Assembly (NCBI GenBank): GCA_965552055.1 | Contig: CBEVQO010000003.1 | Span: 128,001 to 192,000, forward strand | Length of the DNA: 64,000 nucleotides | Source: an uncultured bacterium | Lineage (GTDB): Bacteria > Hydrothermota > UBA3073 > NMUJ01 > CBEVQO01 | Reading direction: 5' to 3' | Part shown: one piece after another, positions 3-6,414 of the stretch | Position numbering within the stretch: the first letter of the stretch is position 1 | Layout: each line of letters begins with the position of its first letter | The notes under the pieces: model-generated | Told to the model about the DNA's origin: nothing | The model's input: the letters and a program-made list of their open reading frames with translations, nothing else | Database searches by the model: none | Program-made: the position numbers and the translations under genes

Positions 3-455
3 AAAGTTCTTACATTGGATGATTTAAGGAAAGTCTGGATAAATAAAGAAAGCAGGAAGAAATTTTTAGATGATTTAAAAGCAAAGAGCATAAATCCAGA
101 GTTAATAGCACAATTACTTGATAGACCTGATGCAGATGCTTTTGATATTATAGCTCATGTAGCTTTTGATGCCCCTATCTTAAGTAGAGATGACAGAGCC
201 CAAGCTTTGTTGAATGAAAAACAGCAATTTATTAACTCTTTCAATGAGACCGCAAAGAAAGTTTTGCTAAATCTCATAGAAAAATACAAGATTGGTGGCA
301 TTGAGGAAATTTCTCCCGAAGCTCTGGAATCTCCAGACATCCAGAAGATTGGCAAGTTGAAGGAGATCATAAATTCTTTTGGCGGAATAGACAATCTTAT
401 ACACGCACTTGAGAGTATTTCTCAAGGTCTTTATGAAGCTGGAGGTGTTAGATAA
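3..455 (+). CDS. hsdR: Type I restriction enzyme R subunit, C-terminal part (EcoEI_R_C-like); 5'-truncated by the window edge
   Basis: Frame is open from the window start. DADAFDIIAHVAFDAPILSRDDRA ... LLNLIEKYKIGGI ... SFGG resembles the EcoEI-type HsdR C-terminus. Stop overlaps the hsdM start (TAATG). Confidence 0.85.
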   Translation, partial: KVLTLDDLRKVWINKESRKKFLDDLKAKSINPELIAQLLDRPDADAFDIIAHVAFDAPILSRDDRAQALLNEKQQFINSFNETAKKVLLNLIEKYKIGGIEEISPEALESPDIQKIGKLKEIINSFGGIDNLIHALESISQGLYEAGGVR

Positions 456-1891
456 TGGATAGACAAACATTAAGATCAAAGTTCAAGCAGACTTGCGATT
501 TGTTGAGAAATGAGATCGCATCAGTTAATTACATAATCCAGCTGTCGTGGATGCTTTTCTTGAAACTTTATGACGATTTGGAAGATGAGAGAGAATTGAA
601 AGCAAAGTTAAAAGGAGAAACGTATCAAAGGAACATACCTTCTCCTTACAGATGGAAAGATTGGGTCCATAAAGACTGGAGAAGTGAAGAACTCATAGAT
701 TTTATTAACAACGAACTATTTCCTTTCCTCTCCAAATTGGACGGTGAAGGTGAGAGAGAGTTAATTGCGACCATTTTTAGCGGTAAGGAAATCCAGAATT
801 TCCTGAAAGATGGTTACAAGTTAAGGGAAATTGCATTGTTGCTTGATGAGTTGAAGTTCAGAACAAGAGAAGACATTTATGTTATTTCTGCACTTTATGA
901 AGAACTTTTACCTGAGATTGGGGAGATGGGTAAATATGCAGGCGAGTATTACACTCCAAGACCCGTCATAAGATTAATGGTTAAAATTGTCAATCCAAAA
1001 CTTGGTGAGATAATTTTGGATCCGTTCTTGGGCTCTGCTGGGTTCTTAATTGAAAGTTATAATCATATTCTAAGGAGCAAAGATGTTTTCACAACAAAGG
1101 AAACCAAAATATTGCATAACATGTTTTACGGACAGGAAAAGAAGGATGTCCCCTATCTTATAGGAATAATGAACCTTCTTTTGCACAATCTTCCAACATC
1201 TCACATTTACAAGGTTGATACTTTTGCTGAGGATGTAAGGAAAATTCAGGAAAAGGATAGGGTTGATGTTATTCTCACTAACCCTCCATTTGGTGGCAAG
1301 TTTGATGAGAGATTTAAAGCTAACTTTCCTGTGAAAAGCTCTGACACGGAGTTAATGGCTTTGCAGTATGTAATGAGAAAAATAAAGCAGGGCGGAAGGG
1401 TCGGAATAGTTGTTCCGGAGGGTGTTTTATCCAACACTACCGGACCTTTTGTAAGGGTTAGAAAAGAACTTCTTGAAAATTATAATGTTCATACAATTAT
1501 TTCTTTACCCAAAGGGGTTTTTACCGCGTCTGGAAAAACTCCTGTCAAAACCAATCTTCTGTTCTTTGATAAAACAAGACCAACAGAGGAAATATGGTAT
1601 TACGAGATTCAACCCCCTAAAGGCATGAAGAATTTTACCAAAACAAGACCGATGAAAGATGAAGACTGGCAGGATTGCTACGAAAAATGGAAAAATAGAG
1701 AAATAAGCGAAAACTCGTGGATTGTAAAGATTGATGAAATTGACAAGGAAACTTATGAATTAACCCCAAGAAATCCTAATAAATTGAAAAAGAAAGAATA
1801 CAGACCCGCAGGAGAGATTTTAGAAGATGTTTTGAAAGAGGAAAGGGAAGTTATGAAATTGTTTGAGGAATTAAAGGGGTTGTTAAGATGA
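455..1891 (+). CDS. hsdM: Type I R-M N6-adenine DNA methyltransferase (M subunit)
   Basis: QLSWMLFLK N-terminal motif, GEYYTPR, motif I DPFLGSAGFL, motif IV TNPPFGG, VVPEGVL. Confidence 0.96.
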   Translation: MDRQTLRSKFKQTCDLLRNEIASVNYIIQLSWMLFLKLYDDLEDERELKAKLKGETYQRNIPSPYRWKDWVHKDWRSEELIDFINNELFPFLSKLDGEGERELIATIFSGKEIQNFLKDGYKLREIALLLDELKFRTREDIYVISALYEELLPEIGEMGKYAGEYYTPRPVIRLMVKIVNPKLGEIILDPFLGSAGFLIESYNHILRSKDVFTTKETKILHNMFYGQEKKDVPYLIGIMNLLLHNLPTSHIYKVDTFAEDVRKIQEKDRVDVILTNPPFGGKFDERFKANFPVKSSDTELMALQYVMRKIKQGGRVGIVVPEGVLSNTTGPFVRVRKELLENYNVHTIISLPKGVFTASGKTPVKTNLLFFDKTRPTEEIWYYEIQPPKGMKNFTKTRPMKDEDWQDCYEKWKNREISENSWIVKIDEIDKETYELTPRNPNKLKKKEYRPAGEILEDVLKEEREVMKLFEELKGLLR

Positions 1892-3207
1892 AAATCCTTG
1901 ATGATTTCAACATGAAATCCAAAAAGCCCTGGGAAGTTGAAGGAATTGAGTGGAGAGAGGTGAGGCTGGGAGAGGCGTGTATTATCAATCCCCAAAGATC
2001 AGAAGTTAAGCATTTGTTAGCTCGAAACATTGAAGTTTCTTTCATACCAATGGAATATGTAAATGATAACAAAGGAAAAATAGTAAAGTTTGATGTTCGC
2101 CCAATTAGGGAAGTGTATAAGGGATATACATATTTTAAAAATGGCGATGTATTGTTTGCCAAAATAACTCCTTGTATGGAGAATGGTAAAAGTGCTGTAG
2201 CATATAACCTGAAAAACGATATTGGTTTTGGTTCTACGGAATTCCATGTTTTAAGACCAAAAGAAAGCATATTGTCTGAGTTTATATTTTATTTTGTTAG
2301 AAGAAAAAAATTCAGAAATTTGGCCAAACTTCATTTTACAGGGACTGTTGGGCATAAAAGAGTTCCAAAAGAATTTCTAATTAATTCAAAAATCCCCATC
2401 CCATTCCGCAACGGCAAGCCAGATTTAGAGACTCAAAAGAAAATCGTTGAATATATTGAGGCAAACTTTTCAAGAATTGACAAAATTCTGGAGAAGAAAA
2501 AGAAAGAACTTGAGCAACTTGATGAACTCTGGGAAAGCGTTTTAGAGCAGGCATTCAAGCCAAAGAAAGGAGAGGAGTGGAAGGAAGTGAGATTGGAAGA
2601 AGTTGCATATATTGAAAGCGGTAACAGACCTAAAGGAGGAGTTAAAAAATACACTGATGGAATTCCTTCAATTGGTGGAGAACATTTAAGTTATGATGGA
2701 GCTTTTTCTTTTGAAAAATTAAAGTACGTTCCAGAGGATTTTTATGAGCAAAGCAACAAAGGCAAAATCAAAAAATATGATATTCTAATCGTCAAAGACG
2801 GTGCAACAACTGGAAAAACAGCTTTTGTAGATGATAATTTCCCATTTAAAAGAGCTATGGTTAATGAACATGTATTTTTATGTAGAATTTCAGAAGAGAG
2901 AATTTATCCAAAATTCGTTTTTAGATTTTTAATGAGTAGAGAAGGGCAAAGTAGAATTTTAAAAACAAAAGGCGGAACAGCGCAAGGAGGAATTAATAAA
3001 CGTTTTTCAAAATTAGTAAAAATTCCTATCCCATTCCGCAACAACCATCCAGACCTTGAAAAGCAAAAAGAAATAGCGGATTACCTTGACAGTGTTTATG
3101 AGAAAATCAAAACACTGAAAGAGAAAATCCATAAGCAGATAAACCTGCTTGAGGAGATGAAAGAAAGTATTTTGGATGAGGTGTTCAATCATGATGAGAC
3201 TAAATGA
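1888..3207 (+). CDS. hsdS: Type I R-M specificity subunit with two TRDs
   Basis: Repeated conserved blocks EWREVRLGE/EWKEVRLEE and KIPIPFRN..PDLE.QK.I flank two variable domains. TRD1 has AKITPCMENGK...GSTEFHVLR. ATGA overlap with hsdM. Confidence 0.95.
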   Translation: MKILDDFNMKSKKPWEVEGIEWREVRLGEACIINPQRSEVKHLLARNIEVSFIPMEYVNDNKGKIVKFDVRPIREVYKGYTYFKNGDVLFAKITPCMENGKSAVAYNLKNDIGFGSTEFHVLRPKESILSEFIFYFVRRKKFRNLAKLHFTGTVGHKRVPKEFLINSKIPIPFRNGKPDLETQKKIVEYIEANFSRIDKILEKKKKELEQLDELWESVLEQAFKPKKGEEWKEVRLEEVAYIESGNRPKGGVKKYTDGIPSIGGEHLSYDGAFSFEKLKYVPEDFYEQSNKGKIKKYDILIVKDGATTGKTAFVDDNFPFKRAMVNEHVFLCRISEERIYPKFVFRFLMSREGQSRILKTKGGTAQGGINKRFSKLVKIPIPFRNNHPDLEKQKEIADYLDSVYEKIKTLKEKIHKQINLLEEMKESILDEVFNHDETK

Positions 3208-3940
3208 TTTTATTGAGGTAGGGGGCTTAGAGAGGAGAAGTTCTGGAGTTTTGTACATCAATATTTATCCTGTGTTAGATTACCCAAGGAAAATAAAAGT
3301 CTCAAAACTTCCTTATGATGAAAGCTTCTCACCGGGCAAGTGGAGAAAAAGAGTAGGAAATATGGTTTATTATTATGGAAGCGGTATTAAAACTCAACCT
3401 GAAGAAATAGATGTTGATAACTCTTTATTCGGCATGATCTTCAGAAAATATCTTCTTGATATGCTATCCCAAAACATAACAGAGTCATGGGAGTTAAAAG
3501 AACTGAGATCAACCTTAAGGATCGTTAAGGAGATTACCGAAAGTTATGATCATTCAGATAAAATAAAACTGCAATATGAACTTATAATAGGTGTTCATCA
3601 TTGGCAAAACACAAATTTTGGACTTACGGTTGATTTGAAGATAAATATATTTGACCTAAAAACTAACGAACGCATCTCATATCCTGAAATAGGGAATAGA
3701 TATGGAGAGAATGTGAGATATAGTATCTGGAAATCTGTTCAGGCATTTCATAAACATCTCACTCCCGAAGGCAAGAAATACGCGACAGCTATGCGAGATA
3801 AATTTAATCTTATAACAGTTCTTCTAAAAGAGGCTTTTGAGGCTTCAGAGGATGAAAAATCCTTCAACACACCAGATGGAGAAGTTAAGATTACTTTTAA
3901 GCCTCTTGAAATCGTTGAGGTGGCTAATCATGGAATATGA
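3191..3940 (+). CDS. Putative Argonaute partner supplying the N-L1-L2 lobe (AfAgo-N-like), 249 aa
   Basis: Directly upstream of and overlapping a MID-PIWI-only Argonaute; size fits the missing N lobe. GAGGTG SD at 3178-3183 points to ATG 3191. Assignment rests mainly on position and size. Confidence 0.7.
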   Translation: MMRLNDFIEVGGLERRSSGVLYINIYPVLDYPRKIKVSKLPYDESFSPGKWRKRVGNMVYYYGSGIKTQPEEIDVDNSLFGMIFRKYLLDMLSQNITESWELKELRSTLRIVKEITESYDHSDKIKLQYELIIGVHHWQNTNFGLTVDLKINIFDLKTNERISYPEIGNRYGENVRYSIWKSVQAFHKHLTPEGKKYATAMRDKFNLITVLLKEAFEASEDEKSFNTPDGEVKITFKPLEIVEVANHGI

Positions 3941-5216
3941 AACAATTATCAGCAATGTAAATTACTACATAGGTGGAGGCACCCAAGTTCCTATATCGAA
4001 TACTGGTGAGTTAATCAGGAAATTAAGAGAATACGGTCCTTACAAGAAACCTTCACTTCGGCATAACAGGATCGCGTTTGTGTATCTTAATCGAGGAGAT
4101 TGGAGTAGTATAATTGAAAAACTAAAAACGCAAATCGCTGAAAAACTTGATGATGTTTGGCATATTAACAATACAGATTTTTCAGATTTTACTTATAATT
4201 CTTCGGATTTTGATTCCATCGAATCTCAAATTGATAAAGCTATAGATACTGGTGTTGATGGAATTATGCTTATTCTTCCAGGATATATGCCAACAGTTTA
4301 CTACAAACTTAAATCATATCTAATCAATAATGTTCCATCACAATTTATGCGATACGATATACTTTCAAGTCGAAATTTAAGATTTTACGTCGATAACCTA
4401 CTTGTTCAATTTATTTCAAAACTTGGAGGAAAACCATGGATTTTGAATATTGACCCAGAAAGAGGCTCAGACATTATAATAGGAACCGGAGCTACACGAA
4501 TTGATAATGAAAATCTATTTTGTTTCGCCATGGTTTTTAAAAAGGATGGAACTATGTTGTGGAACGAAATTTCACCAATAATCAGAAGAGACCAATATCT
4601 AACGCATTTAAAAGAAATTATTGAAAAAGCTGTTAGAGGTTTTAGAGAGAATAACCCCGATTGGCCTGTTGAGAAACTAACCTTACATGTGAGTGGAAAA
4701 AGACCTAAAATAAGAGACGGTGAAACAAAAGTTTTGGAAGATACAATTGAAGAGCTAAAAGGACAAAGTCTAATATCTCAAGATGCAAAATTTGCTATAC
4801 TTCATTTAAATGAAACACATCCTTATTGGATTATGGGTGATTCCAACAATAGGTATCATCCATATGAAGGAACAAAAGTAAAACTGAACTCTAAAAGGTA
4901 TCTACTTGCACTTTCACAACCACACCAAGAGCGATATGGATTAGAAATGGTGACCCCAATAAAACCATTGAGCGTTGAGATAGTTAGTCATAACTGGACA
5001 TCAGAGGAATTTTATCCCTTTGCTCATGAGGTCTTAGATGAGATATATTACCTGTCAAAGATGAACTGGAGAGGATTTAGAGGTAGAAACCTACCGGTTA
5101 CGGTAAATTATCCAAAATTGGTTGCAAGAATAATAGCAAATGTAAATCGTTATGGTGGTTACCAAATAAATACGGAGGGCAATCGTCCATTACGAACAAC
5201 CCCGTGGTTCCTATGA
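3930..5216 (+). CDS. ago: Prokaryotic Argonaute, MID-PIWI only, catalytically inactive (AfAgo/AfPiwi-like), 428 aa
   Basis: MID 5'-phosphate pocket YYKLK...PSQF...KLGG. PIWI C-terminus [18 protein letters not shown]...PWFL. Catalytic positions degenerate (IIIGTG for IGxD, LHVSG for HRDG). GAGGTG SD at 3917-3922 supports ATG 3930 rather than 3837. Confidence 0.95.
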
Positions 5217-6259
5217 TAAACGCAAAATTATTTATGAATAAGATTAACGAAATAGAAAAACGAATGGACTATGTTATTGAGAATTGGGAATCTGATAAAA
5301 GAATTACTCTTCAAGAAAAAAGGTTTGTTCTTTCTGCATACATTCATGGTTTATATAAAAACAAAAAAGTAAAAGATTTAGCAAAAAACAATCTCCATGG
5401 AATCAAAGAAAGAAGAAGATTAGATTTTGAAACTATTTTAACGGCAATAGCATCAGCATTGATTGTTGATGCGGATTTCTCAGAATATTGGAATAAATTA
5501 AAAGAGAGGATAGATAGAAGTTCTCCTACTGAGAAATCTAACTTAATAATTCAATTTTTGGTCATATTAACCCCAAATACCATCAAAAAAATCAATGATG
5601 TGCAATATATTAAAACACTGCTGAAAAGTCTAAAAAGACAAGATACTGAAAAGAAATTATTTTCCTATTGGATAGAAAAATGTCTATTTTCAGAGAAAGG
5701 GCAAATAACTATAAGCCAAAAAGATATTAAATATTTAAAAGAATATTTACTTTGGGAGCTTGTAAATTCTGAAGATGATGAACATCAAAAGGAAGAGATG
5801 AGAAAAAAATTTATTCCAGAGATGTTGGATTACAAAGTTGATAGTATTGATTGGATTGTCTTTTTAATCTATCAATTTCTTAAGAAAAACAAGATATATA
5901 TTATTACAGAAAGCGAACTGGACAGGAAACTCAAAAAAGGTATTAAATCAAGAATAAACAAAAAAGTTTGGTTTCCAGTTGGGTCATCAATATTATTTTT
6001 AATTTTAAAATTGTGGAAAGAAAACATTATAACTTTGGAGACTTTAGGACAAATTGCTTTATTAATGGTAGGGATTGCCTTACTTGTTTTTGAAGAATAC
6101 TTGCCTACTAAGAACATAAAGAAAAAGAAAATAACATCAGGATTACCAGCTACAGCTTTAATAATAGGAGTGTTACTTTGGAATTTCGAAATCTCATTAA
6201 TGCTTAATTTTATTATATCGATCATAGGAAGTATAATAATATGGTTGTTTACAGAATGA
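5213..6259 (+). CDS. Hypothetical membrane protein, about 4 C-terminal TM helices; candidate Argonaute effector, 348 aa
   Basis: ATGA overlap with the Ago stop. Charged N-terminal ~250 aa, then hydrophobic segments [68 protein letters not shown]. Confidence 0.7.
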
Positions 6260-6280
6260 CGCCGCCGAGCCGAACTTTTC

Positions 6281-6348
6281 ACTCGCTGTCGTTCACTACG
6301 GTGCTACCGCACTCGGACAACAAGCGAGTATGCGTTCGCTTCGCGCAT
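6281..6348. repeat. GC-rich inverted repeats/hairpins at the right end of the defence island
   Basis: ACTCGCT(6281-6287) pairs with AGCGAGT(6323-6329), with inner GTGC-TACC-GCAC; second hairpin ATGCG...CGCAT (6330-6348). Confidence 0.5.
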
Positions 6349-6414
6349 CCAGACCTTTACGGCTTCACATGTTCACTAAACTTAGGCGAAATTGCGGGAT
6401 TGCAGAGAAAAACC

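Follow-up and report, generated by a model that had tools for sequence, protein, structure and literature searches.

A Type I restriction-modification operon with an appended split Argonaute module, likely mobile as one integron-like cassette

Results

Gene content and layout of the operon

An operon consisting of a Type I restriction-modification (R-M) system followed by a split Argonaute (Ago) module was analysed in a 64,000-nt stretch of DNA from an uncultured bacterium (the window; G000:C3, contig CBEVQO010000003.1, positions 128,001-192,000; coordinates are those of the window unless prefixed G000 or L). Six plus-strand open reading frames (ORFs) at 3..6259 lie in the order hsdR, hsdM, hsdS, N, MID-PIWI, membrane protein (Table 1), and profile, structure and motif matches agree on the identities that an earlier note, made from the sequence alone, had given them. 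That note took the same positions as the limits of the unit and missed both of its ends. hsdR is complete and starts about 2.08 kb upstream of the window. The predicted unit is bounded 3' of the last stop codon by a 73-nt attC-like site, and 60 nt 5' of hsdR (about 2.14 kb upstream of the window) by a partner core. From these boundaries and those of related loci, the operon likely belongs to a Xer-type, integron-like system in which it moves as a single cassette of 8.5-10 kb.

All five junctions overlap as previously described (in order TAATG, ATGA, 17 nt with GAGGTG, 11 nt with GAGGTG, and ATGA), and the 3' end of hsdS contains the ribosome-binding site and start codon of the N gene. The hsdS/N, N/Ago and Ago/membrane gene overlaps are conserved in all 11 related loci set beside the window. 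Overlap as proof of a single system was nevertheless rejected, since it is common across the genome, where a simple first-ATG caller gives overlap in 707 of 1296 close pairs of ORFs on the same strand. No internal promoter is prominent: 25 promoter-like sites were counted vs 22.9 +/- 5.2 expected, which is chance level. A TTGACA-N16-TATAAA promoter, found by eye, lies about 200 nt upstream of the 5' boundary of the unit. Between purL and the operon promoter sits a member of a ~330-bp intergenic repeat family with more than 100 BLAST matches in the genome (L001:9100-9530, G000:C3:125101-125530). A search for RNA data from a holder of the operon found none listed.

Table 1. Features of the hsd-Ago unit and its boundaries
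Feature	Coordinates	Strand	Description
hsdR, 3' end (last 150 codons)	3..455	+	EcoAI/FtnUII (type IB) restriction subunit, NF046051 739 bits
hsdR, whole gene	G000:C3:125918-128455 = L001:9918-12455		~840 aa, Ig-like insert at 569-660
hsdM	455..1891	+	478 aa; DPFLGSAG and NPPF motifs intact; N6_Mtase
hsdS	1888..3207	+	439 aa; two target-recognition domains; Methylase_S
AfAgo-N orthologue, N-L1-L2 half of split long-B Argonaute	3191..3940	+	249 aa; PDB 8ok9, E 3.5e-111
AfAgo orthologue, MID-PIWI half	3930..5216	+	428 aa; Piwi; AfAgo E 2e-220
Af1317-type putative effector	5213..6259	+	348 aa; 58% identical to gene 3' of AfAgo in L012
Outer arm	6263..6274	+	complementary, with one mismatch, to arm inside 5' core (G000:C3:125859-125880)
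attC-like recombination site	6315..6387	+	R'' at 6315, L boxes, degenerate R' at 6381; predicted 3' boundary

The restriction-modification half

HsdR scores well above the NF046051 cut-off of 550 bits and its PD..EAK, QAKRY and DECH motifs are intact, as are motifs I and IV of HsdM, and HsdS carries two target-recognition domains. By these motifs, hsdR-hsdM-hsdS is an intact Type I R-M system of the EcoAI/FtnUII family. The target-recognition domains of HsdS are swapped among related loci. The Ig-like insert of HsdR was considered as an Ago docking site and rejected, as the same insert is found in HsdRs of genomes in which no Ago was found.

In six loci, unrelated cargo lies between hsdM and hsdS. 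It comprises a 555-aa protein with no Pfam/NCBIfam match (L005:2640-4307, L009, L011), a DUF6731 protein paired with a 156-aa hydrophobic protein (L006:4102-5542, L017), or a 192-aa protein without assignment (L016:7499-8077). These exchangeable genes are candidate defence genes. L014:2930-5005 encodes a 691-aa HsdM-half HsdS fusion (cluster P0249, 8 members).

The split Argonaute module and its putative effector

The window Ago is a MID-PIWI protein of the AfAgo lineage, 73% identical to AfAgo, and the N protein is about 70% identical to AfAgo-N. Y124, K128, Q138, Q160, K164 and the C-terminal L428 align with AfAgo, residues which we take to form the 5'-guide pocket, and G187 stands at what is presumably the first catalytic position. 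Judged from this alignment, the guide pocket is kept and the slicer tetrad is absent. The effector is predicted to have a helical soluble domain (residues 1-235, mostly high confidence) followed by C-terminal hydrophobic helices, and its predicted fold has no solved-structure match at E <= 0.001.

According to the main text of PMC10954474, Archaeoglobus fulgidus has the same three overlapping genes, AfAgo-N, AfAgo and Af1317, with heterodimer formation and RNA-guided DNA binding established only in the A. fulgidus proteins. The third gene is called there a SiAga2-like membrane effector, its function being untested in that work. The three-gene Ago module of the window is a further member of this already published system. 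The A. fulgidus trio lies in a lone low-GC island attributed there to an 'unknown low-GC host', whereas here the module follows hsdRMS in an attC-bounded unit of 34% GC. In BPAM and SiAgo-Aga1-Aga2, too, a gene for a protein anchored in the membrane by its C-terminus follows that of a non-slicing Ago. EaBPAM, a long-B Ago with a transmembrane (TM) protein, kills cells and requires the TM region (main text of PMC10620215). BPAM differs in that its Ago is single-chain and no R-M link is described in that text, while the window Ago is split and its effector is a putative one.

Recurrence of the hsd-Ago link

Scans of relatives gave 19 loci, 15 of them informative upstream; L003, L019 and L021 begin within the module, and L015 retains a ~25-nt hsdS tail and a broken Ago. 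The survey proposed in the earlier note, of AfAgo homologues for hsd genes 5' and a TM gene 3', revealed a recurrent arrangement. hsdS is immediately 5' of N in 14 of the 15 loci with upstream DNA (10 of these 14 also have hsdR and hsdM), and the membrane gene is 3' of Ago in 15/15 loci with downstream DNA. The sole exception upstream is the A. fulgidus-type L012, which has all three module genes without hsd. Scans of genome contigs yielded 0 and 1 locus and did not recover even A. fulgidus, which leaves their blanks with little weight.

Distances of the two halves co-vary over 10 loci (Mantel rho 0.86 for HsdR/Ago, 0.90 for HsdR/N), and more weakly without the two divergent loci (0.59 and 0.79, respectively). 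Five genes are under purifying selection (dN/dS 0.02-0.24, window vs five loci). In rooted trees the hsd-linked L013 and L014 are the earliest branches, and AfAgo lies within a group of hsd-linked rows (support 96/95 in the first tree; 98/98, AU p 0.035 in the second). This group was singled out once the first tree had been built; the second tree omits L003, L007 and rows whose context is unknown. Because of this branching order, the A. fulgidus module has likely come to stand alone by losing hsd.

No account of a Type I operon with an AfAgo module, or of an Argonaute within a cassette, was found in the main texts of the literature covered; hsd neighbours may be given in the supplements of PMC10954474 and PMC6299218. 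HsdS is among the proteins of pAgo operons in the main text of PMC6299218, and those of PMC13477220 and PMC9024848 hold nothing specific to the hsd-Ago unit.

attC-like boundaries of the unit

The complement of the 5' core is the first box of the 3' site, and a second complementary arm lies just inside the 5' core. The cassette so predicted is 8,523 bp long; the predicted lengths in three other loci are 8,545, 9,009 and 10,160 bp, and content is 6-8 genes. Besides the window, 6 of the 12 related loci that extend far enough downstream have an attC-like site 3' of the membrane gene, and in 4 of 8 loci one lies immediately 5' of hsdR. The 3' site is degenerate in L009 and L017, and none was found in L003, L012, L013 and L014. 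Most matches of the site model in related loci are among the 13 attC-like sites from which it was built; matches outside this training set are L007 3' (67 bits), L011 3' (36 bits), L006 5' (33 bits) and, at 55 bits, a site on contig C7. The latter is a lone attC-like site (G000:C7:32577-32663).

The folded site has the R''-L''-L'-R' layout of classical attC. In the inner stem, 118 of 143 cells are Watson-Crick vs 95.9 +/- 4.6 in arm swaps (0/5000), and 19 stem cells are compensatory vs 7.6 expected; counted by stem pairs, compensatory change (6 vs 4.1) is not beyond shuffles. R'' matches its own 5' core at 6/7 positions in the window, 7/7 in L004 and 4/7 in L011 and L016. The predicted circle junction folds with z of -3.5, -6.5 and -7.1 in three loci vs -0.2 to -1.5 for linear DNA. 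Against a genome null of 4638 pairs, end complementarity of 12 nt with one mismatch is reached by 145 pairs and two exact blocks by 95, so that the complementarity of the window ends alone is modest; complementarity of at least 14 nt, as in L004, L011 and L016, is reached by 12.

Similarity among loci begins and ends at the predicted crossover cores, and the flanking cassettes before and after the cores differ in L004, L005, L006, L010, L011 and L016. L016 has the order site, operon, site, helicase, site, the helicase being a 3.7-kb RecD-like cassette (L016:12518-16135), and in L005 a small cassette continues 3' of the operon. Tandem arrays of such sites occur in L016, L011, L005 and contig C9. 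Both cores are mutated in the window copy, which looks stranded behind a host promoter.

The recombinase and the contig C9 array

An integron-like array headed by a recombinase, with three attC-like sites, lies at G000:C9:28375-34880 (L036:6375-12880), away from the hsd-Ago unit on contig C3. Its cargo is of defence type, with a restriction/methylase pair and genes for a 403-aa protein and a NucS-like protein, and one 1.2-kb, one-gene cassette has the same two ends as the hsd-Ago unit. The recombinase is of Xer length with an extra N-terminal domain, and its closest solved structure is IntI4. It lacks the IntI insertion (gap vs IntI4 residues 185-251; TIGR02249 223.6 bits vs a cut-off of 265). 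It is also about 26 in-frame residues shorter than its relatives, those on plasmids being likewise of Xer length, and is probably damaged.

With a 5' XerD-type recombinase, co-directional cargo and integron-like intergenic repeats, the C9 system is, by its gene layout, integron-like and rAID-1-like. The rAID-1 clusters of Bacteroidales have the same three elements (main text of 10.1101/471110), although their cargo is type VI immunity rather than anti-phage and the hosts differ; the likeness is one of layout, the rAID-1 criterion being >44% identity to the B. fragilis recombinase. Integron cassettes share with the hsd-Ago unit folded sites, tandem arrays, promoterless cargo and cross-domain spread, including attC-mediated archaea-to-bacteria transfer (main texts of 10.1101/2024.07.02.601686 and PMC9668308). 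They differ in that no integron defence system described has more than two components, and recombination is poor for long cassettes (main text of 10.1101/2024.07.02.601686), whereas the present unit holds 6-8 genes and two whole systems in 8.5-10.2 kb, and in that the integron recombinase has the IntI domain, which the recombinase linked here does not.

Distribution and separability of the halves

The HsdM clade is discrete, with 35 clusters at >=80% identity followed by a gap to 54% (205 members by hand sum; 7996 candidates scored). The Ago clade is smaller, with 34 clusters and 97 members. Members of the HsdM clade occur in Thermosulfurimonas marina, Methanofervidicoccus abyssi, Ca. Alkanophaga, Ca. 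Syntrophoarchaeum, Aciduliprofundum and WOR-3, and the HsdMs of T. marina, a bacterium, and M. abyssi, an archaeon, are 92% identical. None of these named holders turns up in the 11 Ago clusters with more than one member (for one of them 15 of 21 members were listed), as judged by names rather than by the holders' DNA. The link is therefore one-sided: the A. fulgidus module stands alone, and R-M apparently also occurs without Ago. In G089 (HsdM 80%) the contig ends inside hsdM, so the absence of an Ago match there is uninformative.

Of 272 genomes of the host phylum, 1 gave a close Ago, that of the host itself, suggesting horizontal acquisition; 61 genomes around G272 have no HsdM match. dS differs between the halves (~1.2 vs 0.5 for N; L004, L005), which suggests that the halves recombine. 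Four distant plasmid long-B Agos were inspected out of nine matches, and none has annotated hsd within 6 kb. In G108, hsdM and hsdS of another Type I family enclose a distant split Ago (28% identical) with a helical-Ymh effector, together with an HTH-IrrE/DUF4411 pair (L041:303-6198). The additional cargo is as expected of a hotspot, and the window membrane-protein profile has no match to the G108 effector.

Proposed function and alternative explanations

The explanation that appears moderately probable is that an intact Type I operon with an appended AfAgo-type module is bounded by attC-like sites, is likely one 8.5-10 kb cassette, and provides two defence layers, probably without biochemical wiring between them. 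A Xer-type, integron-like tyrosine recombinase would act at the folded site to release the unit in circular form, and the circle would insert into arrays or lone secondary sites of unrelated hosts. HsdRMS would cut unmethylated incoming DNA first. By analogy with the studied systems, N and MID-PIWI would form a non-slicing heterodimer in which RNA guides bind invader DNA, and which would activate the membrane protein, leading to cell death or arrest as in BPAM and SiAgo systems. The layers would share a transcript and be additive, restriction being followed by Ago-triggered abortive infection. The Ago module would stay attached because its start signals lie in hsdS and the cassette moves whole.

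The Ago module and the R-M family are known; the recurring hsdS-module link, the co-divergence of the halves and the attC-like bounds are new. This unusually large two-system cassette, spread across domains, likely gave A. fulgidus its Argonaute, which gives a lead to the as yet unknown donor of the island that holds one of the most studied prokaryotic Argonautes. With six to eight genes it breaks the reported rule of at most two components for cassette-borne defence, and it offers a tangible means by which defence genes could pass between bacteria and archaea. The related loci include natural intact operons in which the putative AfAgo effector and any R-M/Argonaute cooperation can be assayed.

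Several observations weigh against this explanation. The related loci are kin and not independent draws. R'' and core are complementary at only 4/7 positions in L011 and L016, the L011 circle junction folds poorly (z -1.1), and no circle junction is among the joints listed for 8 DNA runs. The genome's own integrase lacks the IntI insertion and some 26 further residues. The hsdM-hsdS cargo turns over while the Ago module persists, and G108 has its split Ago in a different Type I family. The basal L013 and L014 keep hsd and Ago without an attC-like site, so the link predates, or outlasts, the cassette. In most of the 8 runs the Ago module has a lower contig depth than hsdRM, and X7 covers hsdRM only; this was not used as evidence.

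Functional coupling of the Ago module to R-M is possible but doubtful. The module would be a back-up when restriction is blocked, as are PrrC and Ronin, or HsdR, by translocation and cleavage, would expose the single-stranded targets or guides that it needs. The link is ancestral in the clade and persists to Ago identities as low as 61%, whether or not attC sites are present, and the position of the module is fixed behind hsdS. The independent case of G108 and the presence of HsdS among pAgo-operon orthogroups (main text of PMC6299218) point the same way. There is precedent for membrane toxins that guard R-M, and in the R-M-linked abortive systems PrrC and Ronin the effectors are held by the Hsd complex and released by anti-restriction proteins, Ronin always being hsd-linked (main text of 10.1101/2023.04.06.535777). 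The window effector is likewise a putative toxin tightly linked to hsd genes, yet it has its own Ago sensor and occurs without hsd in L012, so constant hsd linkage is not a trait it shares. Coupling is further opposed by the Ig-like domain of HsdR in genomes where no Ago was found, by the unequal dS of the halves, and by the lack of hsd near all four distant long-B Agos. Of the earlier note's reading of two layers wired together, the gene identities stand, and its first refuting condition does not apply, since the hsd link recurs and the distances co-vary. The wiring itself is weakened, as the trio was already published, the halves apparently each occur alone, and co-residence in an attC-bounded unit explains the linkage with no need for HsdR to feed or trigger Ago.

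A bolder version appears unlikely, in which restriction and Argonaute are truly coupled and cross between domains on an 8.5-10 kb cassette that is actively recombining, Ago and toxin being a Type I fail-safe, split long-B Agos having been recruited repeatedly and AfAgo being an orphaned half.

It seems quite improbable that the operon landed inside a small cassette, took over its ends and became too long to recombine, spreading otherwise (by larger islands or homologous recombination) with its flanks as relics. The 1.2-kb C9 cassette with the same ends, the poor recombination of long cassettes (10.1101/2024.07.02.601686, main text), the mutated cores of the window, the degenerate sites of L009 and L017, the presence in L016 of an archaeal-type integrase gene 2.4 kb upstream and the lack of a circle among the joints listed would all fit such relics. 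Against them stand the similarity that starts and stops at the crossover cores, the flanking cassettes that vary in six loci, and the compensatory change in the stems. Carriage by a phage or provirus was rejected, as viral contigs have no match for hsdM, Ago, integrase or end motif.

Other features of the related loci

An inverted 17-nt piece of a small helix-turn-helix (HTH) gene that lies 5' of hsdR is found 3' of the membrane gene in three loci (L013:8486-8760, L014:8088-8105, L003:3086-3103). In L013 the whole promoter and 5' half of the HTH gene are inverted, which hints at inversion or an invertible operon. Decaying copies of the operon have a shortened N (L010:597-1247), a split Ago (L015:801-2119), or shortened hsdS and N (L020:2528-4315). 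A DruA-NurA-HerA cluster lies downstream of the operon in L013 (L013:10823-14947).

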